Shown here: positions 1,569 to 49,466 of the stretch, one piece after another
Numbering within the stretch: position 1 is the stretch's first letter
Layout: each line of letters starts with the position of its first letter
NCBI GenBank assembly: GCA_964568355.1
Contig: CAZMRK010000030.1
Span: 1 to 51,638, forward strand
DNA length: 51,638 nt
Origin: an uncultured Solibacteraceae bacterium
GTDB lineage: Bacteria; Acidobacteriota; Terriglobia; Bryobacterales; Bryobacteraceae
Direction: 5' to 3'
The notes under the pieces: model-generated
Seen by the model: only the letters and a program-made list of their open reading frames with translations
Told to the model about the DNA's origin: nothing
The model's database searches: none
Translations under genes and position numbers: made by a program

Positions 1569-3917
1569 ATGGACTTTTGTGCCACTCGTCTGATTGGCGT
1601 ACTCCTGGCCGGTTTGGCCGTAACGGCAGAGGGGTTGCCTGCCCAATCTTCCGGGAATTTTCTGCAACGCGCCTTCCGCCGGTCTCCCGAGGACCAGCCG
1701 CTACTGGGCCCGGCGGCTCCGGGCATCGAGCTGCTCATGGCCGGACGGGGGATGGAGGTACAGGCAGGCGGCCGGGCGGATACCGCGCGCCTGAGCGCCC
1801 CCGGCATTCCGTCCTCTTTTGAATTGCGCCACGAGAACCAGGCGGGCATCGACCTCTACCGCCTGCGGCCCGCTCCCGGCGCGGAGCCAAGAGGAGAACA
1901 GATCCGCTTCACGTGGACATTTCCCTCCAGCTACAACGAGTCGATGACACTCGATACCGGCGCGCTGCAGGGCCAGCCTCTCTATTTGCCGGACGGGAAG
2001 ATCCCAGACAACCAATTCACGAACTGGGGCTCGCTGTTCTATGACCGCGGAGCCAACCTGGCGGTCGGCACGCAACTGGACGGCGCGGAGATGTCGCGGC
2101 ACGCGCGGCGCGGCCATTCCCGCTTCACGGGGTCCACGACCCTGCAATTGGTGACGACGACCGGCAATCCCGGGATGGTCCTTACCGTGTTTGCATACCA
2201 TCCCAAAGACCAGCGTTTCTGGTGGGCGGAGTGGTATCAGCTTCGCAGCCGCTCCGATGCGAACCTGCCCGGCAACTTTTTTCCCATTCTCAGCGCGCAC
2301 GAGATAAGCTGGCAGCCCGGTGAACGGCAGGTGGTCTCGGTGATCCCCGGCCCGGATGAGGCGGGGGCGAAGCGGGAGCTGGTTCTGATCGATGATATCC
2401 GGCAAAAGGTGGTGGCGCGCATACCGTTCGCCTGCCGCCTGCCCGTGACCGGCGTGCCGGTGGATGTGGGGCCGTGGAAAACGGGTCTCTACCGGTTGAT
2501 CGTGGCGCCGCCCGGCGCGCCTGTCGATCCGGCGGTCAACGACCTGAACCGCAAGCTGACCAATGTAATCGTCCGTCCCCGGCGTGCCGAAGCGCCGGTG
2601 CTGTTCGTGGTGCCCACGGATATGTGGTGGGCATATTCGACGAACGGCGGCCACGATTATCACGGGTGGCGAACCGGCTACGATGGCAGCGTCGGCTACT
2701 CTCCGACGGTGATGAGCAGCCGCCAGCGCCGCCTCAATAACTTTTTCTACAGCCTTTACGAGCGCTACAACGACATCTACCATTTCCGCTACCTGGATGC
2801 GCTGTCGTCGCAAGACGGCTTCGGTATCGACTACGCCACTCAGCTCGACGTGGCGCGGGGCCGGGTCCACCTGGAAGACTACCGCCTGGTTCTCATCGGG
2901 AACCATTGCGAGTTCACCACGGTGGAGAGCTTTCGCCGCTTCTCCGAGTACCTGGGGAACGGCGGAAGCGTCCTGATTCACGGCGGAGACTCGTTTGCGG
3001 TGATGGTCGAGTACCTGCCGAGCCTGGAAGAGCCGCGCTACCTCTGGCAGCGCGGCCACGTGTGGACGCACTTGAGCGACCAGCCGGGCAATTTTGAATC
3101 GCCCGCGCTGCTGCCTGCCAACGCGCCTCCGGACGCTCCCATCCTGGAGGCCACACCTGGAAATGCAGTGGACTACCTGAACGTGTTTCACACCAGCGTG
3201 GGCTATTGGATTCCCGGCAGCAAAGCGGTAATCGCCAACACCGTGCATCCGATTGTGCGAGGGCTGGATCTCAAGCTGGGACAGGAGGTGCCGGGCCCGT
3301 GGGGCGGGGAAGTGGATTACGCGTATGAACCGCAGGCGTGGGACATCCTGATCCGTTCCGATCGAGCGGCCCCGGAAGAGCGGGAATTCGGCGTGGACGC
3401 ATACGATCCAACGCCGCTTCACCGGATTGGGCTGGCCGTCCACCGGAATCTGCGCCTGGCCATGGTCTGCGGGGAGAATTTTCCGAATATCCTCCAGCAA
3501 AGCCAGAACGGATTGTTTCGCGAACTATATCGCCGGACGCTGCACTACCTGCTGGACGGTCCCAGGCCCGCGAAAGGCGCCAGGAATCTGGTGGCCCCCG
3601 GGCAGGGCCAGACCGGCGTGATCCGCTGGGAGGCGCCGGTCCGCATCGGAAGCCTGCGATACGATCTGCCCGCTTTCCTCGATTTCGAGGATCCGCGATG
3701 GTACCGGCATGCGGCTCCCTACGCTCACTACGTGGTCGAGGCGTCGATGGACGGAGAGCACTGGGTCCGGCTGGCGGACCGCCGGCACGGCGCCTGGCGG
3801 GGGCGGCAAACCGACACCTTTGCCCCGGTGGACGCCCGCTATCTGCGCTTCGACGGCACGTTCTCCAATGGCGAAGCATTCCACGTGCAGAATGTGCAGG
3901 CCTTTGGCGCCCCGTAG
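1569..3917 (+). CDS. secreted hypothetical protein with a GATase1-like (N,N-dimethylformamidase-large-subunit-like) middle region and a C-terminal discoidin (F5/8 type C) domain
   Basis: 782-aa ORF with a hydrophobic N-terminus (LIGVLLAGLAVTAEG). LVLIGNHCEFTTVESFRRFSEYLGNGGSVLIHGGDSF resembles DMFase-type folds. The C-terminal ARYLRFDGTFSNGEAFHVQNVQAFG is discoidin-like. The domain names are motif-level recollection only. Confidence 0.75.
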   Translation: MDFCATRLIGVLLAGLAVTAEGLPAQSSGNFLQRAFRRSPEDQPLLGPAAPGIELLMAGRGMEVQAGGRADTARLSAPGIPSSFELRHENQAGIDLYRLRPAPGAEPRGEQIRFTWTFPSSYNESMTLDTGALQGQPLYLPDGKIPDNQFTNWGSLFYDRGANLAVGTQLDGAEMSRHARRGHSRFTGSTTLQLVTTTGNPGMVLTVFAYHPKDQRFWWAEWYQLRSRSDANLPGNFFPILSAHEISWQPGERQVVSVIPGPDEAGAKRELVLIDDIRQKVVARIPFACRLPVTGVPVDVGPWKTGLYRLIVAPPGAPVDPAVNDLNRKLTNVIVRPRRAEAPVLFVVPTDMWWAYSTNGGHDYHGWRTGYDGSVGYSPTVMSSRQRRLNNFFYSLYERYNDIYHFRYLDALSSQDGFGIDYATQLDVARGRVHLEDYRLVLIGNHCEFTTVESFRRFSEYLGNGGSVLIHGGDSFAVMVEYLPSLEEPRYLWQRGHVWTHLSDQPGNFESPALLPANAPPDAPILEATPGNAVDYLNVFHTSVGYWIPGSKAVIANTVHPIVRGLDLKLGQEVPGPWGGEVDYAYEPQAWDILIRSDRAAPEEREFGVDAYDPTPLHRIGLAVHRNLRLAMVCGENFPNILQQSQNGLFRELYRRTLHYLLDGPRPAKGARNLVAPGQGQTGVIRWEAPVRIGSLRYDLPAFLDFEDPRWYRHAAPYAHYVVEASMDGEHWVRLADRRHGAWRGRQTDTFAPVDARYLRFDGTFSNGEAFHVQNVQAFGAP

Positions 3918-4013
3918 ACGCAGCCTGCTCCAGCTATACTGTTGAGTACCAAGCAGCCGGCACCCCGACGAGCCGAACTTGGACCTCACCAATCCAGTTC
4001 TCAGAGGATCCTC

Positions 4014-37516: not shown

Positions 37517-38242
37517 GGTCACGGCATAGGAGGTATAAAGGGCATCTCCGTGCTCCAGCGTCACCGGCCAGCCCACATAGATGTCTGCGGAGAGAGCCAG
37601 TTGCATCGGATGGGCGAAGGCGGCATGCTCACGGTAAAGCAGGCGGAAGATGCCCAGAAAGTCGAGGGGCTTCGCCACAATGGTGTTCGCGGCTTCCCCG
37701 GCCATCGCGAACGCTATTGGGTTCCGGCAATGAGCAACGTGGACCTGGATCTCGAAGCGGTCTGGCCGACGAAGTTCTGCCTCACTGAGGCGCAGTGCGC
37801 TCTCGGCAGCATGCTGCTAAAGCGCCTGGATGCCGTCAACAATCAACTGCGCGCACAATATGAATACCTGGAGGCAAAGCTCCGGTCCTGTGAGTATCTC
37901 GATTTCCGCGTTGCCGCGCCATCCCGGCATCACGTGGCGCACGCCTTTGTGGTGGCTTTCGGCGGCGAGCCTCTTTCCGCAACCCGGGATGACTTGCTGG
38001 ACATTCTGACCGCCGAACAGGGCGTCAAAGCGATCGTCCAATACTATCCGCTATATCGCTATCCGCTGTTCCAGAAGATGGGCTTTGGACAGGCGGACTG
38101 TCCCAACCTGGAGCGTTACTGGCCTGCCAGCTACTCCTATCCCTGGTGGTGCGGCATGCCGCGGGAGACGTTGGACTACATGGCAGATGCAACCCTCGCT
38201 GCTGTCGCCAGGCTGCGAAAAGCAGCCACGGCACGCGCCTGA
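37517..38242 (+). pseudogene. 5'-truncated DegT/DnrJ/EryC1/StrS-family aminotransferase (C-terminal ~240 codons only)
   Basis: Homology starts at the GEGG block (..HRMGEGGMLTVKQAEDAQKVEGLRHNG.., then KFCLTEAQCALGSMLLKRLDAVNNQLRAQYEYL). The frame is closed by TGA at 37514..37516. Only 86 nt separate it from the divergent aldolase start, so the N-terminal half of the fold is absent. Confidence 0.75.
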
Positions 38243-38271
38243 TCTTCATTTCAAAGCCTGGGAGATCTGCC

Positions 38272-39009
38272 GTGAAAGGTTTCGCGACGATCGATTATGT
38301 CGTGCTGGCTCTTTATCTGCTGACCGTGGTGCTCGTGGGAGCGTCGTTTTACCGGCGGAAGACGACGTCCCGCGAGTACTTCCTCGGAGGGAAGCGCATG
38401 ACCTGGCTGCCGGTCGGCATTTCCATCGTCGCCGCGGATACGAGTGCGATCACGCTGATGGGTACGCCGGCCTGGGGTTACCAGCACTCCATGGAACTGG
38501 CCTGGCTCAACATCGGCTACGCGCTGGCTGCCCCCATCGTAATCTTTCTGTTCATCCCGTTCTACTCCCGCTTGGACCTGTTCACGGCGTACGAATATTT
38601 AGAGCGCCGCTTCAGCCTGGCCATCCGGCTAGTCACCAGCCTGCTATTCCAACTCCTGCGCGTCACCCATGTCGCCATCGCGATCTATGCTCCGTCGATT
38701 GCACTCACGATCGTCACCGGCATGTCACTGTGGGAGTCCATTGTCCTGATCGGCTTTCTCACCACGGCCTACACCAGCTTCGGCGGCATGCGGGCCGTCA
38801 TCTGGACCGATGTCATTCAATTCTCGACCGTCGTTACCGGCCTTGCGGTCGTCTTTGTGCTCGCGCTGGGTTCGATCCCCGGCGGCATTCCAGGTGCCAT
38901 CGCTGCCGCTGAGGCGGCCGGGAAACTGCGCTTCCTCGATCTCTCCTTCGATCCGCGTGTCGAGACTTCTGTCTGGGCTTGCCTGCTCGGAGGAATCGGA
39001 GATAGATCC
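38272..39009 (+). pseudogene. sodium:solute symporter (SSS family), N-terminal 246 codons only, read through in frame into the next gene
   Basis: GGAG plus 7 nt precede GTG 38272. VKGFATIDYVVLALYLLTVVLVGASFYRRKTTSREYFLGGKRMTWLPVGISIVAADTSAITLMG is the SSS N-terminal signature. About 6-7 TM segments follow. The similarity stops at ...SVWACLLGGIG, where the remaining transmembrane half of the fold should follow. Confidence 0.7.
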
Positions 39010-40071
39010 ATGCCTGATATTCGAAAAAGTCTTCATCAATCGCTTGGCCGCACGGGACTACGTGTCTCGCGCGTCTGCCTGGGTACCATGACGTTCGGCA
39101 ACCCGATCTGCGAGCCGGACTGCCAATATCTCGTCAGCGAGGCGCTGGAACGAGGAGTCAATTTTTTTGATACTTCGAATGCCTATGAAGGCTATGACAG
39201 GTCCTTCGGCTCCCCCGGCGGACTAGGGGAAGAGCTGCTCGGCCGGTCGCTGGAAGGTCGCAGGCACCAGGCCGTGATCTGCACTAAATTCGCCAATCCC
39301 GTCGGCCACGGCCCTCTGGATGCCGGCCTCTCCGCCCGCCATCTTGAAGCAGAATTGGACAAAAGCCTGAAGCGTCTGCGGACGGACTATATCGACATCG
39401 TTCTGGCGCATCGCTGGGATATGGCATGCACGGTCGACGAAGTGTCGCGGGTATTCGAGCGCTGGGTGAGGGCAGGAAAGGTTCTCAGCGTCGGCACATC
39501 CAATTGGCCCGTATGGCGCATGGCGCAGCTTGCGGAACAAAATCGCGCCACCGGCAGACTGCCGCTTGCCGTCAGTTCTCCCAAGTACAACCTCCTCAAC
39601 CGCGGCATCGAACTGGAGCACATCCCCTGCGCCCTGGAGAACGGGATTGCCCTCGTCACGTATCAGCCATTTCAAGGCGGGATCCTGGCCGGGCGGTACC
39701 GCCGTGGGCAGCAGCCCGACCCGCAATCTCGCGGTGCCGAGAAGCCCGGCTGGATGCCGGCTATCGCGGATAGTCTTTTTGAAAGGCTGGAAGCGTTGGA
39801 GGCGCTCGCCGCCGAGGCTGGCATGGGCCTGGTGCCATACGTCACGGCGTGGGTCCTCTCACGCCCTGCCGTCGCGGCGGTCGTTGTCGGCTGCCGGCGG
39901 CCGGAACAGCTTCGCGATGTTCTGCAAGGTGCCGTTCAGCAATTTCCCCAAGAACATGAGGTCAAGCTTGACGCGCTTTTTCCACCCCCCGTGCCGCTAA
40001 GTGGCGAATCTGTGCTCGACTTTCAAAATGGTGCTTGGAAACTGCTCGACAGCGAATTGTGCTCCCGGTGA
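39010..40071 (+). CDS. aldo/keto reductase
   Basis: ATG 39010 gives MPDIRKSLHQSLGRTGLRVSRVCLGTMTFG, the AKR N-terminal signature. FFDTSNAYEGY, DIVLAHRWD and VGTSNW follow. It shares one open frame with the symporter fragment (track ORF 38146..40071). Confidence 0.85.
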   Translation: MPDIRKSLHQSLGRTGLRVSRVCLGTMTFGNPICEPDCQYLVSEALERGVNFFDTSNAYEGYDRSFGSPGGLGEELLGRSLEGRRHQAVICTKFANPVGHGPLDAGLSARHLEAELDKSLKRLRTDYIDIVLAHRWDMACTVDEVSRVFERWVRAGKVLSVGTSNWPVWRMAQLAEQNRATGRLPLAVSSPKYNLLNRGIELEHIPCALENGIALVTYQPFQGGILAGRYRRGQQPDPQSRGAEKPGWMPAIADSLFERLEALEALAAEAGMGLVPYVTAWVLSRPAVAAVVVGCRRPEQLRDVLQGAVQQFPQEHEVKLDALFPPPVPLSGESVLDFQNGAWKLLDSELCSR

Positions 40072-41429: not shown

Positions 41430-42983
41430 ATGAAGCTCGATCTTGCACCACCCGTTATCTTCCAAGAGAAATCCCTGCCGCCGGTCACCCGGCTCGCCGG
41501 GTGGTCGGCCCTCGTGCAGGCACTTGGCATCTCCGCTCCGGTGCGGCATCCGAGCTGCGTCTCTGAACAGTACGTCCGTGGCAGCCGGCGCGAAGAGGGC
41601 GGCTGGGTTGTCTTCGACAAGCGCTACTGGCCGGGTGAGAACTTCTCAGACCATCTCCTCTTTGCCCTTCGTCATGAGGACCTCGACCTCCTAATCCTGA
41701 AGCGCGTGTTCGACGCCGTTCCGACGGCAGAGTTTGAGGCTCTGGTTCGTGGCGAGTCGACATCCGTCCAAGTTCGCCGCGCGTGGTATTTGTACGAGTT
41801 CCTCACCGGACGCACGCTCGATGTCGCCGGCGTACCGCGAGCCGCTACCATTGACATCCTCGATCCGAAGATCTACTTCACCGGCAAACCGCGCGCGTCG
41901 CGCAGGCATCGTGTGCGCGATAACCTTCTCGGGACCGCGCGTTTCTGTCCGGTGATACGCAGAACCAAGACTCTGGAAAATTCTGTCTCCCTTGATCTCG
42001 CCGCAAAAGCGCGCGAGACGGTTGGCAGGACTGGCGCACACCTCGTTGCACGCGCCGCGAGTTTCCTCCTCCTCGCTGACAGCCGCGCCAGTTTTGAGAT
42101 CGAAGGGGAACGACCGCCGCGGAATCGACTCGAGCGATGGGGACGCGCTGTCCTCCAGGCCGGCAAGAATCCTCTTACCCTGGATGAGATCCTGCGCCTG
42201 CAAAGCGTTCTCATCGAGGACACGCGGTTCGTTCGCGCGGGCTTGCGCCCGGACGGAGTTTTCCTCGGCGAACGCGACCACCACGGCGATCCGCTTCCGG
42301 AGTTCATTGGGGCTAGGGCACAAGATCTCACGGATCTGATGGCTGGCCTGTTGGAAGCGAACGATCGCATGCGCGAGGATGGCATCGACCCGGTGCTCAA
42401 AGCGACTGCCACGGCCTTCGGCTTCGTCTATATCCACCCATTCGAGGACGGCAACGGACGGATGCACCGCTGCCTCATTCATCACGTCCTGGCCGAGCGT
42501 AAGTTTACGCCGCCCGGCATGGTGTTTCCCGTTTCATCCGTCATGCTCGACCGGATCGATCATTACCGGGCGACGCTACAAGGCCATTCCGGTCCACTGA
42601 TGCCCTTCATCGAATGGCGTCCCACCCTGTCTCGGAACGTCGAAGTCCTCAACGACACAGTCGACCTCTACCGCTATTTCGACTGCACCGAAGAAGCCGA
42701 GTTTCTCTATTTGTGCGTGCGGCGAACCGTTGAAGAGGATTTGCCGCGCGAAATCGACTACCTGCGCCGCCACGACGAGGCAATCCATAGGATCATGGAC
42801 GCTGTCGAGATGCCGGACCGCATTGCAGAGAATCTAGTCATGTTCATCCGTCAGAATGACGGTTCTCTGTCCAAGAATCGTCGCGACCACGAATTCAAGG
42901 CATTGCGCGATGATGAAGTCGCGTTGATCGAAGGCATTGTCCGCGAAGCATTCGAGGGCTTCGAGGGCACGCCCGCCGCCTAG
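41430..42983 (+). CDS. Fic-family protein (class II, N-terminal auto-inhibitory helix)
   Basis: The Fic motif is HPFEDGNGRMHRCLIHHVL. The inhibitory motif [S/T]xxxE[G/N] appears as SFEIEGE upstream in the same chain. The protein is 517 aa with N- and C-terminal helical extensions. Confidence 0.9.
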   Translation: MKLDLAPPVIFQEKSLPPVTRLAGWSALVQALGISAPVRHPSCVSEQYVRGSRREEGGWVVFDKRYWPGENFSDHLLFALRHEDLDLLILKRVFDAVPTAEFEALVRGESTSVQVRRAWYLYEFLTGRTLDVAGVPRAATIDILDPKIYFTGKPRASRRHRVRDNLLGTARFCPVIRRTKTLENSVSLDLAAKARETVGRTGAHLVARAASFLLLADSRASFEIEGERPPRNRLERWGRAVLQAGKNPLTLDEILRLQSVLIEDTRFVRAGLRPDGVFLGERDHHGDPLPEFIGARAQDLTDLMAGLLEANDRMREDGIDPVLKATATAFGFVYIHPFEDGNGRMHRCLIHHVLAERKFTPPGMVFPVSSVMLDRIDHYRATLQGHSGPLMPFIEWRPTLSRNVEVLNDTVDLYRYFDCTEEAEFLYLCVRRTVEEDLPREIDYLRRHDEAIHRIMDAVEMPDRIAENLVMFIRQNDGSLSKNRRDHEFKALRDDEVALIEGIVREAFEGFEGTPAA

Positions 42984-43470: not shown

Positions 43471-44172
43471 TCAGTCGTACAGGCCGCGCCCGTCATTGCA
43501 GACGAATGTGATCGCGTCCCACGCGACGGACGGGTACTTGGCGGCGTCGAATCGCATCGCGCCGTCGAGGTCGTGGTCGTACTCGATATCGAACGCCAAC
43601 GTGATGCCCGAGACGTCCGTCCGCGGCAGGTGCTTCAACCGGAGGTGGTTGCGGCCGGAAATCAGTTGGCGGATCTGGTCGTCCGTCATGCCGCGCTTCC
43701 GGAGGTCGTCAATCTTGACCTTGCCCTTGACGAGATCCTGCCGGAGCGCGTTGGTCTGCATCTCCTGGGTGCGCCTCTCCCAGGTCTCGTGCATGTCGGA
43801 GTAGTCTTTGTAAATAATCGCGCCCGCCGCCACGACGCCCGTGGCCAGCAACGCCCACGGGTTGGCCGCGAGCGCAATCGTCAACGCGCGCACCGCCGCC
43901 ACGATCCCCATGATCTTGGCGGCGATGGCGTAGGTCGCCAGGATTCCCGCCAGCCAGATCGCCATCCGGCCGAACTTCTCGATCAGGCCGATGTTGTCCT
44001 TGAGCCAGGACACCATGTCGCGCAGGTGGCCGACGACGGCTTTCAACTCACCCTGGAAAGCATTGCCCTCGTCCTGCTTGAGATCCACCACGTCGGGCCC
44101 GAGCGCCTTCATCTGTCCAGCCAGGGTGCTAGAAGGGCGCCGGACCGTGTTGCTGAATCCGGCGTGAATCAC
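43471..44172 (-). CDS. hypothetical membrane protein with a tape-measure-protein-like hydrophobic core
   Basis: FGRMAIWLAGILATYAIAAKIMGIVAAVRALTIALAANPWALLATGVVAAGAIIYKDYSDM resembles the LxANPxxLxxxxxxAxxxxxxxYKNW segments of phage tape-measure proteins. The start is uncertain: GTG 44172 overlaps the methyltransferase remnant, and ATG 44112 is an alternative. Confidence 0.45.
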   Translation of the reverse strand: MIHAGFSNTVRRPSSTLAGQMKALGPDVVDLKQDEGNAFQGELKAVVGHLRDMVSWLKDNIGLIEKFGRMAIWLAGILATYAIAAKIMGIVAAVRALTIALAANPWALLATGVVAAGAIIYKDYSDMHETWERRTQEMQTNALRQDLVKGKVKIDDLRKRGMTDDQIRQLISGRNHLRLKHLPRTDVSGITLAFDIEYDHDLDGAMRFDAAKYPSVAWDAITFVCNDGRGLYD

Positions 44173-44866
44173 GAAGTCGCGGATTGTCGACTTGCTCCTG
44201 CGGTACGCCGCGCGCGGCCGCGACCTCTGAAATGGGCTGCCCAGTGTCCGCGAGGATTGCTCCTTCGCCAGCGAGGTTCGCCATGCGTCGCAGGATTACA
44301 TCGCAATAGGCCGGCGAAATCTCGCAGCCGTAGCCGGTCCGACCGAGCACGTGGGCCGCAGCCATCGTGGTTCCTGAACCCATGAAGGGGTCGAAGACCG
44401 CGTCGCCGGCGTCCGTGAACGCTTTCACGAAGAATTCCACTAGGGCGCGGGGGAATGGAGCGGAGTGCGATCCCTGGCTGCTCTCCGACTTGACTTCGAT
44501 TACGTTGCTCGGGCGGGCAATGCCGGTGAACCGGCCATCGCTCTCGCTTGCGTCTGGCTGTGCCGCGGCCGCACCCCGAGCGCCGGTACCAAGAAGGCCA
44601 CTACCGGATGTCGACTTGGGATTGTTCGGTGAGTAGTCAAAGCAGTGCTCGGACTCGTGCCCGACCGCCCGCGGCCGGAACTTGATCTGCTGCCGCCAGC
44701 AGAAGTGATAGATCGGTTCGAAGGCGTTCTTAAACCTGTTTCCCCAACCGCCGGGCACGCCGTTGTCGGTTTTGCGCCAGCAGAACTCATCCACGAACCG
44801 CCAGCATCGCAGCTGGTAGCGGGCGTCGCTTCCTGCATAGGGAAATCCAAGTTTAAGGAGTGTGAA
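44129..44866 (-). pseudogene. 5'-truncated beta-class N4/N6 DNA methyltransferase (lacks the N-terminal DPPY motif IV)
   Basis: The C-terminal AdoMet motif I is DAVFDPFMGSGTTMAAAHVLGRTGYGCEI. The middle region reads CWRKTDNGVPGGWGNRFKNAFEPIYHF. My upstream translation stays family-like (FTLLKLGFPYAGSDARYQLRCWRF) up to an in-frame TAA at 44869..44867. No DPPY region precedes it. Confidence 0.7.
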
Positions 44867-45382: not shown

Positions 45383-47221
45383 CTATGCCATGCCTTCGAT
45401 GCGCCGGCGGCAGAGGTCCAGCGCCTCCACTGTCATCTGCCGCGTTTCATCGCTCAGCTGGATGGCCTTCGGAACTGCGATCCCGTCGAGCGCCCCGCGC
45501 AGTCGCTGCACAACCTCATCCACAGCGCCTTCCGCGTCGCCGGCCCGCAGACCAGCAGTCGTCGCCAACGCCTCGAAGTCAGCGCGACGGAGGTTATCAT
45601 CCTTGCCGTTGAGCTTAAGCGCGAGGCGGTCATGTCTCAGCTTCGGGAAGACACGTGTCGTCACGGCATCGTAAAGCGGCGCAAGCCGCACGGTGCGGAA
45701 CTGCCTGTCGTCCGGCTCGGCGGTCTTGAGCAGCGCCATGTTTTTGAGATGCATGTCCCCGTCGGCGATCAGCCAGGCGAAGACCGCGCGCTTCACGATG
45801 ATGAGCAGATCCTCTTCGGGGGCCGTGGACAGCGGGCGGACGGCGCGTGCGACGCGCTCCATGGTGCTGTCGTACTTCGCGCTCGTCGGCAGATCCAGAA
45901 CGGAGCACATGTCTTCCAGCGCCAGAAATCGCGTGTCGGCATTGCTCTCGCGAATATCGAAGCGCTCGACAAGGAGTGCCGGCGGCATCCTGTCCGGCAT
46001 GGCGACAAGCGCGGTCTCCGGCGCTTCGAAGCCGGCCGCCCGGCCGAGTTCCATCGCCATCCACTCCACGACCGGCAGTGCATCATAGCCGCTGGTCCCG
46101 GCGGGCTTGAGGATATGGGTGAACGGCTTTCCGGTCGCGGGCGAGAGAACGCCCTTTTCATCAAGGCACATGGGCGCCTTGATCTGCACGCCCGAGAGGC
46201 GCGGCGTATCCGCGCGCGCGTAAATCTGCGCGAGGGTGCGCTCGAAGTTCTTCTCGATTTCGCCCCGGCCGGGTCCTTCGTAGGCGCCGGTAAAGACGCC
46301 GCCTTTGGTATAACCGGCCAGCGGCCTCAGGAGGACGTCCTGCGGTAGCTGCCTGAGCTCCGACTCCTGTTCAACAATCGTGATATTGGACGTGTAGCGC
46401 TTCCCAGACCGCAGCAGCGCGCGCTCGTCCTTGTCCTGGAGAACCTGCTCCAGCCAGCCTTCCGGCAGCAGCGAGACGATGAACGGCGGCAGTCTGCCGG
46501 GCGTTGTCTGCCGAATGAGCGGCGGCCCGTCGACCTCGCCCGGCTTCCACCGCCACTCGAACCCGTCGTGAATCAGGCGCCCCAGAGGCACGCCGTGCCA
46601 GGCGACGATGAGATCCAGCGCCGCCTCGTTCTTTGCGGGCGCAGCGCTCGGCCGTCGCAGCAGGTAGCGCTCCGCCGCCTCCCCCTCGCGATACCACTCG
46701 TTTTCGCGCGCCAGTGTCCAGACCGCATCGGCCGCGCCTTGTGCAGAGCCATATTCCTCGATCAGGCGCGCAGCAATCGAGCCCCGCATGTCGTCATTGA
46801 TCGATGCCGCGTGCTCACTGCGCAGACGGAATGCCTCAAGGAAGCGCTGGCGGATTGATGAGACGGCAATCCGGAACTCGCCCATGCCGTCGTCGATGAC
46901 GCCCTCGCCGACGGATGGATGCGCTGGGGCCTCGTTCTGGATGATTTCCAGTGCACGGATGCGGGTGCGTTGCTTGCGCCTGGCGCTCAGAAAAAGACGT
47001 CCGTCCGGGGTTGGCCCGAGCAGGACGGCGCTCGCGGCCGACAGGTAAGCTTGGGGGTAGAGATATTTGGCGATACGGACGGCGTGCCGGAGGACGGTGA
47101 CTTCGATGTCGTCTTCCGCGTCGACGTAGATGCCGCGCATGAGCTGAACGAGTTTCCCGGTTTCGGCCCGGTAGTGGCTGCGGGTCTTGTCGATCGTTTC
47201 GCCAACGAGGTGTAGCGCCAT
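45383..47221 (-). CDS. HipA-family Ser/Thr kinase toxin homologue with a ~190-aa N-terminal AbiEi-like extension
   Basis: The protein is 612 aa. From about residue 200 it has LDLIVAWHGVPLGRLIHDG (HipA coupling domain), LSGVQIKAPM (Gly-rich loop), DGDMHLKNMALL (catalytic loop) and APLYDAVTT. Residues 1 to about 190 are extra. They include GKLVQLMRGIYVD and AKYLYPQAYLSAASAVLLG..LFLSARRKQ. Confidence 0.88.
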   Translation of the reverse strand: MALHLVGETIDKTRSHYRAETGKLVQLMRGIYVDAEDDIEVTVLRHAVRIAKYLYPQAYLSAASAVLLGPTPDGRLFLSARRKQRTRIRALEIIQNEAPAHPSVGEGVIDDGMGEFRIAVSSIRQRFLEAFRLRSEHAASINDDMRGSIAARLIEEYGSAQGAADAVWTLARENEWYREGEAAERYLLRRPSAAPAKNEAALDLIVAWHGVPLGRLIHDGFEWRWKPGEVDGPPLIRQTTPGRLPPFIVSLLPEGWLEQVLQDKDERALLRSGKRYTSNITIVEQESELRQLPQDVLLRPLAGYTKGGVFTGAYEGPGRGEIEKNFERTLAQIYARADTPRLSGVQIKAPMCLDEKGVLSPATGKPFTHILKPAGTSGYDALPVVEWMAMELGRAAGFEAPETALVAMPDRMPPALLVERFDIRESNADTRFLALEDMCSVLDLPTSAKYDSTMERVARAVRPLSTAPEEDLLIIVKRAVFAWLIADGDMHLKNMALLKTAEPDDRQFRTVRLAPLYDAVTTRVFPKLRHDRLALKLNGKDDNLRRADFEALATTAGLRAGDAEGAVDEVVQRLRGALDGIAVPKAIQLSDETRQMTVEALDLCRRRIEGMA

Positions 47222-47227
47222 GCTAAT

Positions 47228-47318
47228 CTTCCCGTACTTCAGGTACGACTAGGTTAGCACTGGCGACCCGACCGTTTCAATAGAAATTAAACTTTCCCGT
47301 ACCTGAGGTACGGGAAAG
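47228..47318. promoter_or_regulatory. two related palindromic operator-like sites upstream of the HipA-like gene
   Basis: The distal site is CTTTCCCGTACC-TGA-GGTACGGGAAAG (47292..47318), with perfect 12-bp arms. The proximal site is CCCGTACTTCAGGTACGAC (47231..47249) and matches the distal core at 15/19 positions in the same register. It overlaps the GGGAAG Shine-Dalgarno region of the ATG at 47221. The two centres are 65 bp apart. Confidence 0.6.
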
Positions 47319-47810
47319 ATAGCCTCTGGCGCTGTCAACTTTGGTTTCAACCGTCGCGTGGTTTCGCCACCGGTTCGCCGTTTGTTTTCAACAACTTGCT
47401 TATCTGCGAGAGGGTTTTATTCCAATGTTTTTGGGGATTTTCCTAGACAAGATGGTTTGACAGGCCTTGAGGGCTGCAAGTGCCTGATTCGCCGAAGGTT
47501 GTTTTTTCTCAAAGTTCAACGTGGCCGCCCATGGAAGCGAGTGCAAAACGGCCTTTTCCACAGCCTGTCAGTTCGGGCAGTTGACAGGCCCGCCGCGTGT
47601 TATGACTGCTCGCTTTCGTGCTACTAATTGCAGATCACCTTACGTATCAACAAATTACCTCTGAGCTGAGCGATCGCACCGGGCGAACGGATCTTGGGGG
47701 CCGCGCTTAACGCGCCCGCCAACAAAGGCCACTCTGTCAATCAGATTTTGATATATGCGTTCTTGGCTGGCCAAGCGCATCCTTATGAGAACAAGCGAAC
47801 AGGCATAATC

Positions 47811-47844: not shown

Positions 47845-48441
47845 ATGAACACCATTGCGAAAATGATCGTCGCGCGAGCCAAGCGGCACGGAGCCGGTTG
47901 GGTGTTCTCTGCCAAGCACTTAACCGATCTCGGCGACCGCGCGGCAATTGATCAGGCACTCAGCCGCCTAGCCAAGGACGGTCGAATTCGTCGTCTGGCC
48001 CGTGGGCTTTACGACTTGCCGAAAATCCACCCCGTCCTTGGTCCGCTCTCGCCAAATCCAGACGCCGTGGCGGCTGCCGCCGCAGAGCAGGCCGGCCACC
48101 GTCTTCAGATTTCTCCCGCACGTGCTGCCAACGTGTTTGGGCTTTCGTCGCAGGTGCCGGCGAAGGCGGTATATCTGACCGATGGCAGTTCGCGACGCAT
48201 CAAGATCGGGAATCAGGTGGTCTATCTGAAGCACGCGGGGCCGCGTGCCCTGCTCGGCTCCGGCACCCAGGCTGGTGCCGCACTTCAGGCGTTGAGAGCA
48301 GTTGGCAAAGACCACATAAACGACGGCGTTGTGCAGCAGCTCCGTTCGACGCTCCCGTCCGATGCCAAACACGGCCTTCGCAAGTTGATGCACCAAGCTC
48401 CGCAATGGACGGCGCCGGTCATCGCCGCCATCACCGCATAG
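47845..48441 (+). CDS. AbiEi-family (type IV TA) antitoxin / transcriptional regulator
   Basis: The 198-aa protein has VFSAKHLTDLGDRAAIDQALSRLAKDGRIRRLARGLYDLPK (wHTH ending in RGxY), followed by the AbiEi C-terminal-type domain. Its TAG stop abuts the ATG of the AbiEii gene (TAGATG). Confidence 0.82.
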   Translation: MNTIAKMIVARAKRHGAGWVFSAKHLTDLGDRAAIDQALSRLAKDGRIRRLARGLYDLPKIHPVLGPLSPNPDAVAAAAAEQAGHRLQISPARAANVFGLSSQVPAKAVYLTDGSSRRIKIGNQVVYLKHAGPRALLGSGTQAGAALQALRAVGKDHINDGVVQQLRSTLPSDAKHGLRKLMHQAPQWTAPVIAAITA

Positions 48442-49466
48442 ATGAACAAGTTCGCTTTGCTCCCTGCTGCTGATCGGGCGGCCGTCCTGCAGGAGACTGC
48501 CGCGAGAATGGGGATTGGGTCTCCAGCAATCGTTGAAAAGGACTTTTGGGTATGCTGGACGCTCGGCCAGATCTTCACGGCCGACTCGCTACCCGGACCA
48601 TTATTCAAAGGCGGCACCTCGTTATCGAAGGTCTACGGAATCATCGCCCGCTTTTCAGAAGACGTCGACATTGTCCTCGACCGACATGTGCTGGGCTTCG
48701 AAGGCGATGGTGACCCAATTAATATCACCGGCACAAACCGACGCAACCGCCGCCTCGACGAGCTCGCGGCCGCGTGCTCGCAGACTGTCCAAGGTCAGTA
48801 CGCGACGCGCTCCAGAAGCGTTTCCAATCGGAACTGGGTAATGCGGGTTGGTCGATAACTCCAGATCCTGCCGATCGGGATGGTCAGAGTCTTCTGTTCG
48901 CATATCCCGTTGGCCTCGAGCCACGGCTCTATGGAGCGGTAGGTTACATCCATCCCGTCGTCCGACTCGAATTCGGATGCCGCGGAGATATCTGGCCGAC
49001 GGAGCACCGCACGATCCAAGCTTACGTAGCTGAGCAGTTTCCGGACCTTTTCGGATGGGCTGAATGCTCGGTTCACGTGCTTCGTCCCGAACGGAAGTTT
49101 TGGGAAAAAATCACGCTGCTCCACGCCGTCACGCATTCCGGCAAGACGCCACCACGCCTTTCTCGCCACTACTATGATGTCTCTCGAATGTACCGGCACG
49201 ATGTCGGCCCCCAGGCGATGGCCGATCCGGCTTTGCTGGAAGCTGTTGTTAAGCACAAGAGTGTCTTCTTCAGAGAGGCTGCGGCGAGATACGATTTGGC
49301 AGTGCCAGGCTCGCTGAAAATCGTTCCTGGCGACGAACTGGAGCGGGCTGTTCGCCGCGACTACCGGGAGATGCAGGAAATGTTTTTCGGGGAAGCGCCG
49401 GCGTTCGATGACGTCCTCTCGGACATTCGCGAGATCGAGCAGCGAGTGAACTCCAAGCCGGTTTGA
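48442..49466 (+). pseudogene. AbiEii/AbiGii-family nucleotidyltransferase toxin, interrupted by one frameshift
   Basis: Part 1 (48442..48858) contains EKDFWVCWTLGQIF...LFKGGTSLSKVYGIIARFSEDVDIVL, the nucleotidyltransferase core. Part 2 (48774..49466, another frame) continues with RLEFGCRGDIWPTEH...KFWEKITLLHAV...LSRHYYDVSRMY. The frames overlap at 48774..48858. The switch most plausibly lies near 48795..48800. Confidence 0.8.

Follow-up and report, generated by a model that had tools for sequence, protein, structure and literature searches.

A widespread family of HipA-type kinases with a fused AbiEi-like module and a conserved operator pair, predicted to repress its own promoter

Introduction

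How is a HipA-type kinase regulated when its gene stands without a partner gene? This question was raised by a gene for a protein of 612 amino acid residues (aa) in contig CAZMRK010000030.1 of an uncultured Solibacteraceae bacterium (assembly GCA_964568355.1), the whole 51,638-nt stretch of which was analyzed and is referred to below as the window. Hip kinases provided the founding example of antibiotic persistence mediated by a toxin. The way in which they are restrained differs by family (HipB, HipS or a fused helix-turn-helix, HTH), and an AbiEi-like fold, which comes from a mechanistically different class of toxin–antitoxin (TA) systems and is here part of the presumed toxin, would add another. 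A sequence-only reading of the window had proposed that the kinase carries an AbiEi-like N-terminal extension, lacks an adjacent antitoxin gene and regulates itself.

Based on profile, structural and comparative analysis, the gene was found to represent a real, widespread and apparently uncharacterized Hip kinase family with what appears to be a built-in AbiEi-type autorepressor. A pair of 29-bp palindromes bracketing a putative sigma-70-like promoter was the new element found in this analysis.

Results

Integrity and Distribution of the Gene

The reading frame of the kinase fusion (Table 1) starts at position 47221, and an in-frame TAG 10 codons 5' of this ATG rules out a frame longer than 45383..47221. 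All of the motifs that the sequence-only reading had named were recovered at their assigned places in this frame; GKLVQLMRGIYVD, AKYLYPQAYLSAASAVLLG and LFLSARRKQ correspond to residues 22–34, 51–69 and 76–84, respectively, and LSGVQIKAPM corresponds to residues 342–351. When 5.8 billion proteins were searched, more than 2,300 clusters at 90% identity were related to the 612-aa protein, and the best 120 of these clusters were all of ∼612 aa and 77–96% identical. Relatives were present in 473 of 185,579 species genomes (one genome per species), and full-length copies were found on 70 plasmids, for example plasmid 1 of Nitrobacter hamburgensis X14. Given these numbers of clusters, genomes and plasmid copies, a chance open reading frame (ORF) was excluded. 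The annotation of the plasmid copies goes no further than "HipA domain-containing protein" or "type II toxin-antitoxin system HipA family toxin".

The closest relatives (97%) were metagenome-assembled genomes (MAGs) of the Bryobacterales/Bryobacteraceae. Hosts also included Alpha-, Beta- and Gammaproteobacteria, Gemmatimonadota, Verrucomicrobia, Rokubacteria, Fibrobacteres and Bacteroidota (Puia), and among cultured hosts were Mesorhizobium spp., Aminobacter anthyllidis, Nitratireductor luteus, Glaciimonas immobilis, Rhizobium terrae, Herbaspirillum sp. RV1423, Aquamicrobium soli and Novosphingobium endophyticum. In all 90 loci whose gene is intact and complete, the frame measured 611–619 aa. 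When 1.84 billion cluster representatives were searched exhaustively with HMMER, the N-terminal domain (N-domain) was recovered in only 235 of them, and the full-length ones among these were all kinases of 600–684 aa, down to 30% identity. Conservation of the fusion among orthologues, a check suggested with the sequence-only reading, was seen in every locus examined. Neither a homologue of the N-domain among 50,697 phage records nor a structural match in BFVD was found that would point to a phage origin.

Stand-alone N-domain proteins (195–298 aa) were considered as evidence of a two-gene ancestor and rejected, as both of those looked up were frameshift-broken kinase genes. These lie on long-read metagenome contigs as two to three consecutive same-strand ORFs over ∼1.75 kb (loci L001, 5001..6752, and L002, 5001..6658). 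Such broken genes seed databases with spurious N-domain proteins of 195–298 aa, some of which are called HipA kinase by the Joint Genome Institute (JGI).

A Conserved Operator Pair Brackets a Putative Promoter

Two palindromes, O1 and O2, were located upstream of the start codon (Table 1), and their family consensus is the 29-bp sequence ACTTTCnCGTAy-N5-rTACGnGAAAGT. A position weight matrix (PWM) was made from the 29-bp palindrome ACTTTCcCGTAtnTcAnaTACGgGAAAGT (37.5 bits). Two PWM sites within -150 to -20 were found in 79 of 84 loci, with their starts clustering at -98 ± 3 and -34 ± 2, whereas the other 615,812 bp of these loci contained a single match. In the held-out plasmid loci, both sites stood at the expected positions in seven of seven, and none was found elsewhere. 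The same arrangement recurs in other phyla. Within the window, the family consensus matched once against none expected (100 shuffles), so that the palindrome noticed earlier at 47292..47318 is real, while its second member, O2, had been missed by the earlier reader.

The centres of O1 and O2 are ∼64 bp apart, which is roughly six helical turns. O2, which ends 4 nt before the ATG, lies over the putative -10 element, the probable start of transcription and the ribosome-binding region. The upstream DNA beyond the two operators was unconserved, save for a TTGAc/a box and a "TGcTA" junction leading into O2. The TTGAc/a box and the TAACTT hexamer, with a spacer of 17–18 nt, appear to be a sigma-70-like -35 element and an extended -10 element, although a strict sigma-70 consensus scan did not call a promoter between O1 and O2. 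With O1 abutting the putative -35 element and O2 covering the putative -10 element and the start, the layout is that of an autorepressed promoter.

Several variations of the operators were observed. The outer arms of O2 are degenerate in the clade of the window; in this GTAC (Lys/C) clade, the left arm of O2 (window 47246..47254) is consistently ACTTAGTCG or ACCTAGTCG instead of ACTTTCnCG, and the altered arm preserves both the in-frame TAG and the TAACTT -10-like hexamer. The PWM scores of O2 and O1 in the window (17.7 versus 41 bits) hint at possibly unequal operator affinities. In most loci, O1 and O2 share the specificity base and the central 5-bp spacer, and the spacer differs between loci (it is GTGAG in both operators of locus L003, which lie at 3903..3931 and 3966..3994, and TCCAA in both operators of L007). 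The shared spacer suggests that the two sites evolve in concert or undergo gene conversion, or that the centre makes an unrecognized contact. In one Acidobacteriota MAG, two paralogues (L022 and L025) lie 28 kb apart on contig CAVWYG010000006.1 and have the same operator class, GTACCTGAAGTAC, and cross-regulation between them is possible.

Operators of more distant subfamilies were also altered. In the divergent 600-aa subfamily (L001, L002 and L005; ∼45% identical), RRxQRTR is replaced by KRNDRNR, and the operators retain only the outer ACTTTC…GAAAGT arms around a different inner sequence (GCAAAT…). In the 604-aa subfamily (L006), no operator was recognized with the 29-bp matrix.

Residue 83 Covaries with Base 12 of the Operator Half-Site

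In the motif RRxQRTR, residues R81, R82, Q84, R85 and R87 are invariant, and residue 83 is the only variable position. According to the model of the N-domain, the motif forms the turn (81–83) and the second strand (84–88) of a beta-hairpin with strands 75–80 and 84–88. Base 12 of the half-site (GTAC, GTAT or GTAG) was compared with 612 alignment columns in 59 loci dereplicated at 93% identity. Column 83 reached a normalized mutual information of 0.89, and the runner-up 0.54. All 26 loci with lysine at residue 83 have C at base 12, and all 33 loci with Asn, Ile, Val, Ser, Thr or Ala have T or G, so that residue and base agreed in 59 of 59 loci; the next-best of the 612 columns agreed with base 12 in 83% of loci. 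Lysine facing the guanine of a C:G pair, and isoleucine or valine facing a thymine methyl group, would be chemically ordinary readouts.

The operator class changed 7–10 times on the trees, and residue 83 changed with the class each time. The trees were built by the unweighted pair group method with arithmetic mean (UPGMA) or by complete linkage, and their input was the kinase part, the N-domain lacking residues 78–90, or the whole protein.

The N-Terminal Module Is a Remote AbiEi Homologue

The alignment of the N-domain comprised 39 diverse sequences (38–78% identity), and AlphaFold was run on residues 1–200. The resulting model had a predicted local distance difference test (pLDDT) score of 91.9 and a predicted template modelling (pTM) score of 0.84, and its secondary structure begins with a strand (3–6), a helix (12–20) and a hairpin (24–34; strands 24–28 and 31–34). 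When the model was searched against the PDB with Foldseek, only two matches at E ≤ 1e-3 were obtained, both to Streptococcus agalactiae AbiEi chains of 6Y8Q (6y8q_A/D; E 2.2e-5 and 1.3e-4, probability 1.00); the alignments of ∼200 columns took in the entire 195-residue AbiEi at 10–12% identity. The fold of the AbiEi C-terminal domain (a helix, a row of beta-strands and a helical bundle) was thereby found to be present. A sequence-profile search of the PDB with the N-domain gave nothing meaningful (best E 0.07, to an epimerase), and AbiEi was recovered by the fold search only.

Profiles of the relatives pointed the same way. When 13 diverse N-domains were scanned singly with PADLOC, 24 of the 25 families that matched the largest number of members were AbiEi, at a best E of 7e-7. 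The matches begin at profile positions ∼20–30, and some of them cover most of the module, with residues 8–159 on profile positions 29–168 of 201. Pfam AbiEi_4 was reached by 4 of the 13, under threshold (best E 4.6e-4). An alignment with hhalign placed residues 10–35 on residues 35–59 of the AbiEi encoded elsewhere in the window, that is, on its recognition helix and wing. The module is conserved to the same degree as the kinase (mean column identity 83%). Residues 1–192 are thus a remote AbiEi homologue that lies outside the AbiEi family by curated cutoffs.

The Kinase Part Retains the HipA Motifs

HipA_C (PF07804) was the only Pfam domain found in the 612-aa protein (143.7 bits against a cutoff of 30.5). 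The closest solved structure by sequence was Legionella pneumophila HipT (8ezr/7vkb; E 3e-20), followed by Escherichia coli HipA (E 8e-9). A weak match to the PADLOC candidate defence protein PDC-M03A (E 1e-3) involved the kinase core only. In the Gly-rich loop, P340, S343, G344, Q346 and K348 are invariant, including in members of only 30–40% identity, and S343 is taken here to be the equivalent of the HipA autophosphorylation serine S150. In divergent members, G, D, H, K and N of the catalytic loop and P and D of APLYD are invariant (motif definitions of Hip kinases from PMC8262856). Couple_hipA (PF13657) was the sole or best match in 10 of 10 diverse members, below its cutoff of 22.5 bits in each (14–20 bits; E 8e-4 to 0.06), and the HipS chain 7ab4_B gave a weak match to the 612-aa protein (E 0.28). 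The part from residue ∼200 to 612, for which a HipA-type kinase had been claimed from the sequence, is indeed one by its HipA_C domain, and is probably a HipA with a fused HipS-like N-subdomain.

The Kinase Gene Stands Alone

All six-frame ORFs of at least 45 aa within 1.5 kb of the gene were clustered for 86 loci. No flanking ORF was conserved across lineages; the largest clusters held nine loci, all of Mesorhizobium, which reflects synteny by descent. In six loci on long contigs (gene calls and Pfam), the neighbours were all different, namely an integrase with IS66, topoisomerase IB, NOV_C, HigBA/HicB, PIN and an Eco57I-like enzyme, and the upstream gaps of 136–480 bp mostly faced a divergent or unrelated gene. 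Neighbours were likewise variable in the annotated plasmid records. The small minus-strand ORFs in both flanks of the kinase gene in the window had no Pfam match, included no HTH ORF and were not conserved elsewhere, and no Rfam match was found in the flanks. Since no neighbouring gene is conserved, the unit is monocistronic, and this is a conserved property; the absence of an adjacent antitoxin gene, which had been noticed in the window alone, thus extends over the family.

The window also contains an AbiE system (Table 1). Its AbiEii is split over two overlapping frames, 48442..48858 and 48774..49466 (both on the plus strand), which match the PADLOC profile PDLC02289 at positions 3–107 and 98–303; the frameshift is either that of a pseudogene or a sequencing error. 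This AbiEii pairs with the separate, divergently placed AbiEi and not with the kinase fusion. AbiE adjoins the kinase in only three close relatives, being intact for AbiEi in L017 and present as remnants in L033 and L015. The neighbouring AbiEi was considered as the operator binder and rejected, because AbiE stands beside few of the kinases and the operators are present nearly everywhere.

Other genes of the window were noted. A DNA methylase ORF (44129..44794, minus strand) covers only positions 77–219 of the 221-position N6_N4_Mtase profile and is apparently an N-terminally truncated remnant, separated by ∼590 bp of non-coding DNA from the kinase stop codon. A Fic/DOC-domain protein of 517 aa (41430..42983, plus strand) is encoded in the same variable island as the kinase. 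In Novosphingobium endophyticum (L004, 9608..9839), a Fic gene is likewise found within a few kb of the kinase, which may be a coincidence or a recurrent companion. A 641-aa ORF (38146..40071, plus strand) matches a sodium:solute symporter profile over its first 175 positions (of 406) and then a complete aldo/keto reductase, and it is probably a transporter remnant reading in frame into a reductase gene.

Table 1. Coordinates of the features discussed in the text (positions of the window; upstream distances are counted from the start codon of the kinase gene).
Feature	Position	Strand	Basis or remark
AbiEi-like/HipA fusion coding sequence, 612 aa	45383..47221	-	ORF list; ATG start
Two-part AbiEi-like module (truncated winged helix and AbiEi C-terminal-domain-like fold), residues 1–192	46646..47221	-	AlphaFold2, Foldseek, PADLOC
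Retained recognition helix (12–20) and beta-hairpin wing with RGxY, residues 10–35	47117..47194	-	hhalign, model
RRKQRTR, residues 81–87 (K83 codon 46973..46975)	46961..46981	-	candidate specificity residue K83
HipA N-subdomain-1/HipS-like (Couple_hipA), residues ∼204–275, motif LPPFIVSLLPEGW	46397..46612	-	PF13657
Gly-rich loop PRLSGVQIKAPM, residues 340–351	46169..46204	-	S343 at the HipA/HipT autophosphorylation-serine position
HipA_C kinase core, residues 342–575	45497..46198	-	Pfam PF07804, E 8e-42
Catalytic loop DGDMHLKN, residues 487–494	45740..45763	-	invariant in 42 close relatives
APLYD, Mg-binding aspartate motif, residues 514–518	45668..45682	-	invariant in close relatives
Operator O1, 29-bp palindrome TCTTTCCCGTACCTCAGGTACGGGAAAGT	47291..47319		-98 to -70; PWM 41 bits
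Putative -35 hexamer TTGAAA between O1 and O2	47275..47280	-	TTGAc/a box kept 8–11 nt after O1
Putative extended -10 TGcTAACCT, 18-nt spacer, over the left arm of O2	47251..47259	-	"tgCTA-ACTT" junction in most loci
Operator O2, ACCTAGTCGTACCTGAAGTACGGGAAGAT	47226..47254		-33 to -5; PWM 17.7 bits
Terminator-like hairpin, 56 nt past the stop codon	45306..45327	-	consensus scan; count not above shuffle expectation, weak
Neighbouring AbiEi with DGRIRRLARGLYDLPK	47845..48441	+	DUF6088 E 4e-33; PADLOC AbiEi E 3e-63

Discussion

On balance, the gene probably encodes a self-contained, monocistronic Hip kinase module with an AbiEi-like autorepressor, which may well restrain the kinase in cis. A single polypeptide comprises, in order, the AbiEi-like module (residues 1–192), the HipS-like subdomain (∼204–275) and the HipA core (∼333–578), in which no catalytic residue is missing. 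The AbiEi-like module would bind O1 and O2 as dimers and shut off its own promoter; recognition would involve the retained helix, the wing and the basic hairpin RRxQRTR, with residue 83 reading base 12 of each half-site. From the conserved operator pair and the complete agreement between residue and base, we strongly infer autorepression through this module at O1 and O2. The gene travels alone between phyla and plasmids and yet retains the operators, which argues that the operator binder is the gene's own product, and the covariation supports this. The earlier claim of self-regulation is accordingly upheld at the level of transcription only. There is precedent for such a circuit in AbiEi and Rv2827c, for which autoregulation via promoter-overlapping inverted repeats has been described (PMC7319586).

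The same module may also keep the kinase inactive in cis, either by tethering or occlusion on the DNA or by control of S343 autophosphorylation. Release by some trigger would lead to phosphorylation of a translation factor and to growth arrest, the 612-aa protein being presumably toxic. Autophosphorylation of the serine in the Gly-rich loop turns HipA-type kinases off, and E. coli HipA is reportedly held inactive in HipA2-HipB2-operator assemblies, a finding ascribed to Schumacher et al. in 2015. The antitoxic part of AbiEi is its C-terminal domain (PMC7319586), and antitoxins of the AbiEi family act via toxin phosphorylation, as described for TakA (PMC7205606) and for the AbiEi-induced autophosphorylation of AbiEii (preprint 10.64898/2026.01.19.700257). 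Together with the fused HTH of HipH/YjjJ, these precedents make cis restraint plausible; by analogy it is likely, and we hold this with moderate confidence. The link of AbiEi-type proteins with phosphorylation (TakA, MenA, AbiEi) also offers a hypothesis for the recruitment of an AbiEi-like domain to a kinase. A bolder version, in which a true cis-antitoxin from the AbiE/MenAT world controls S343 autophosphorylation while tethering the kinase to its operators, would make the protein a one-polypeptide TA or abortive-infection system; this version is tentative, and the chance that it is right is appreciable though clearly the smaller one. If it were true, parts of two TA classes would have been merged, and operator specificity could be reprogrammed via residue 83.

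A number of observations weigh against autorepression and restraint by an AbiEi-like module. Helices 1 and 2 of the AbiEi winged helix-turn-helix (wHTH), in which three helices stand ahead of the beta-sheet (PMC7319586), are absent from the N-domain, where only nine residues precede the recognition helix, and DNA binding therefore cannot be assumed from the fold alone. The N-domain of the window protein, taken by itself, had no Pfam (AbiEi models included) or NCBIfam match, and its own PADLOC AbiEi matches were weak (E 1.5e-3 to 0.02, residues 10–66). The Foldseek template modelling (TM) scores to 6Y8Q are moderate (0.48–0.53); this value fits flexibility between the two AbiEi domains, since their orientation differs by 65 degrees between AbiEi and Rv2827c, a known flexibility (PMC7319586). 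The proposal that the first ∼190 residues are AbiEi-like thus stands for the fold and for the hidden Markov models of the relatives, with the qualification that the wHTH is truncated. The PWM was trained and scored on the same loci except for the seven held-out ones, and these seven include no Lys/C example. The covariation rests on crude UPGMA trees, and only ∼250–350 bp separate residue 83 from the operators, so recombination could co-transfer both as a linked block. The full-length AlphaFold model (42 close relatives) was unusable at a pLDDT of 47.6, and contacts between the N-domain and the kinase were unreadable in it.

Among the other explanations, the one with the most weight, though we regard it as unlikely, is that the protein is an autorepressor and a kinase whose AbiEi-like module is no antitoxin and sets the expression level only. 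The kinase would then be controlled by S343 autophosphorylation and the HipS-like subdomain, or it would be a non-toxic signalling enzyme that alters DNA binding. All of the direct evidence does concern DNA binding and operators, S343 is invariant, and a HipS-like subdomain is built in, HipS being the antitoxin in HipBST (PMC8262856). However, conservation is as strong in the N-domain as in the kinase, and the 2021 survey treats every characterized HipA homologue that it names as a toxin (PMC8262856). Somewhat less probable again is a one-gene abortive-infection or defence system, in which the AbiEi-like module senses a phage cue (a protein or DNA, for instance) and frees the kinase to arrest translation. 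AbiE, a known abortive-infection system, keeps the kinase company in the window together with Fic and the methylase fragment, and Eco57I-like restriction-modification, HigBA/HicB, PIN, NOV_C, IS66 with integrase, transposases and Cas9 do so at other loci; with the 70 plasmid copies and the weak PDC-M03A match, this genomic company suggests defence or element maintenance. The PADLOC match is restricted to the kinase core, however, and phage homologues of the N-domain were not found in the records searched. A defence role is compatible with a self-repressing, cis-restrained kinase and does not exclude it.

Two further explanations assign the palindromes to something other than the kinase protein. 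It is quite improbable that a partner in trans, be it encoded just upstream as a small unannotated gene or RNA or elsewhere as an antitoxin or repressor, binds the palindromes and neutralizes the kinase. Classical hipBA does need HipB, and the 620-bp upstream gap in the window contains small ORFs, but these have no Pfam match, no flanking ORF of at least 45 aa is common across lineages, the DNA beyond O1, O2 and the promoter is unconserved, and the flanks have no Rfam match. Moreover, the gene moves alone with its operators, and the residue that covaries with base 12 belongs to the kinase protein. Slightly more improbable still is that the palindromes are RNA or terminator elements, with O1 ending an upstream transcript and O2 forming a hairpin in the 5' untranslated region. 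A consensus scan called O1 a terminator-like hairpin with a T-rich tract, but the count of such terminators was within the shuffle expectation, no upstream minus-strand gene ends at O1, and the upstream contexts differ with each lineage. With O1 upstream of the putative -35 element and O2 over the putative -10 element, neither would be fully transcribed from this promoter, and the covariation with an amino acid would be left unexplained.

The self-repressing, cis-restrained kinase that we favour can be put to the test, as the family occurs in cultured Mesorhizobium, Rhizobium, Nitrobacter, Glaciimonas and Novosphingobium. The defined circuit of two operators, a promoter and one apparent specificity residue opens autoregulation, cis-neutralization and the exchange of TA modules to testing.

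Comparison with Known Systems

The Hip phylogeny of Gerdes et al. (2021) comprises ten families or gene organizations, none of which has an AbiEi–HipA architecture, in agreement with what the sequence-only reading had supposed. The part of its supplement that was available contains no 612-aa entries, which is not decisive. TASmania holds only AbiEi_4.AbiEii and HTH_3.HipA_C pairs. Full-text literature searches, by which most subscription-journal papers were left uncovered, returned no description of an AbiEi–HipA fusion, and a prior description is possible.

Compared with HipBA of E. coli K-12, the family has the Gly-rich-loop serine, the DxHxKN loop, the Mg-binding aspartate, probably the N-subdomain-1, and multiple palindromic operators that imply a DNA-bound repressing complex in common; it differs in that no hipB gene is present, and the DNA-binding function would lie inside the kinase polypeptide. 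With HipBST (E. coli O127 and L. pneumophila), the likeness lies in the kinase core, which is most similar to HipT(Lp), and in the probable presence of a HipS-like element. Here, however, the HipS-like part is fused, as in HipA, in a single 612-aa ORF, and HipB is missing. HipL (kinase core, HipS-like part and HIRAN) is likewise monocistronic and combines a Hip kinase with an accessory domain that binds nucleic acid, but in HipL the kinase comes first and the accessory domain is HIRAN, whereas here the order is reversed and the domain is AbiEi-like. Lacking HipB, a separate HipS and HIRAN, the family belongs to none of hipBA, hipBST and hipL.

AbiEi, Rv2827c and TakA (COG5340) resemble the N-terminal module in their two-domain fold, the RGxY wing and the repeats in the promoter, binding to which is predicted here. 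Rv2827c has two inverted-repeat pairs within -1 to -131, and the window gene has two palindromes within -5 to -98. AbiEi-type operators are 23-bp repeats 3–13 bp apart, whereas those of the kinase family are 29-bp palindromes with centres ∼64 bp apart. Instead of pairing with a DUF1814/AbiEii nucleotidyltransferase toxin, the AbiEi-like module is fused to a kinase.

In function, the closest counterpart is HipH/YjjJ (clade X in the survey by Gerdes et al. 2021). The NCBIfam YjjJ equivalog NF007297 scored 23.9 bits on the window protein against a cutoff of 401. The extension of HipH is a simple HTH of ∼100 aa, and N-subdomain-1 is missing there, whereas the window protein has an AbiEi-type module of ∼192 aa and probably a HipS-like subdomain. 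Both are encoded by a single gene with no adjacent antitoxin and carry an N-terminal fusion of DNA-binding type on a Hip kinase, and the fused domain of HipH has been proposed to act in cis (PMC8262856).

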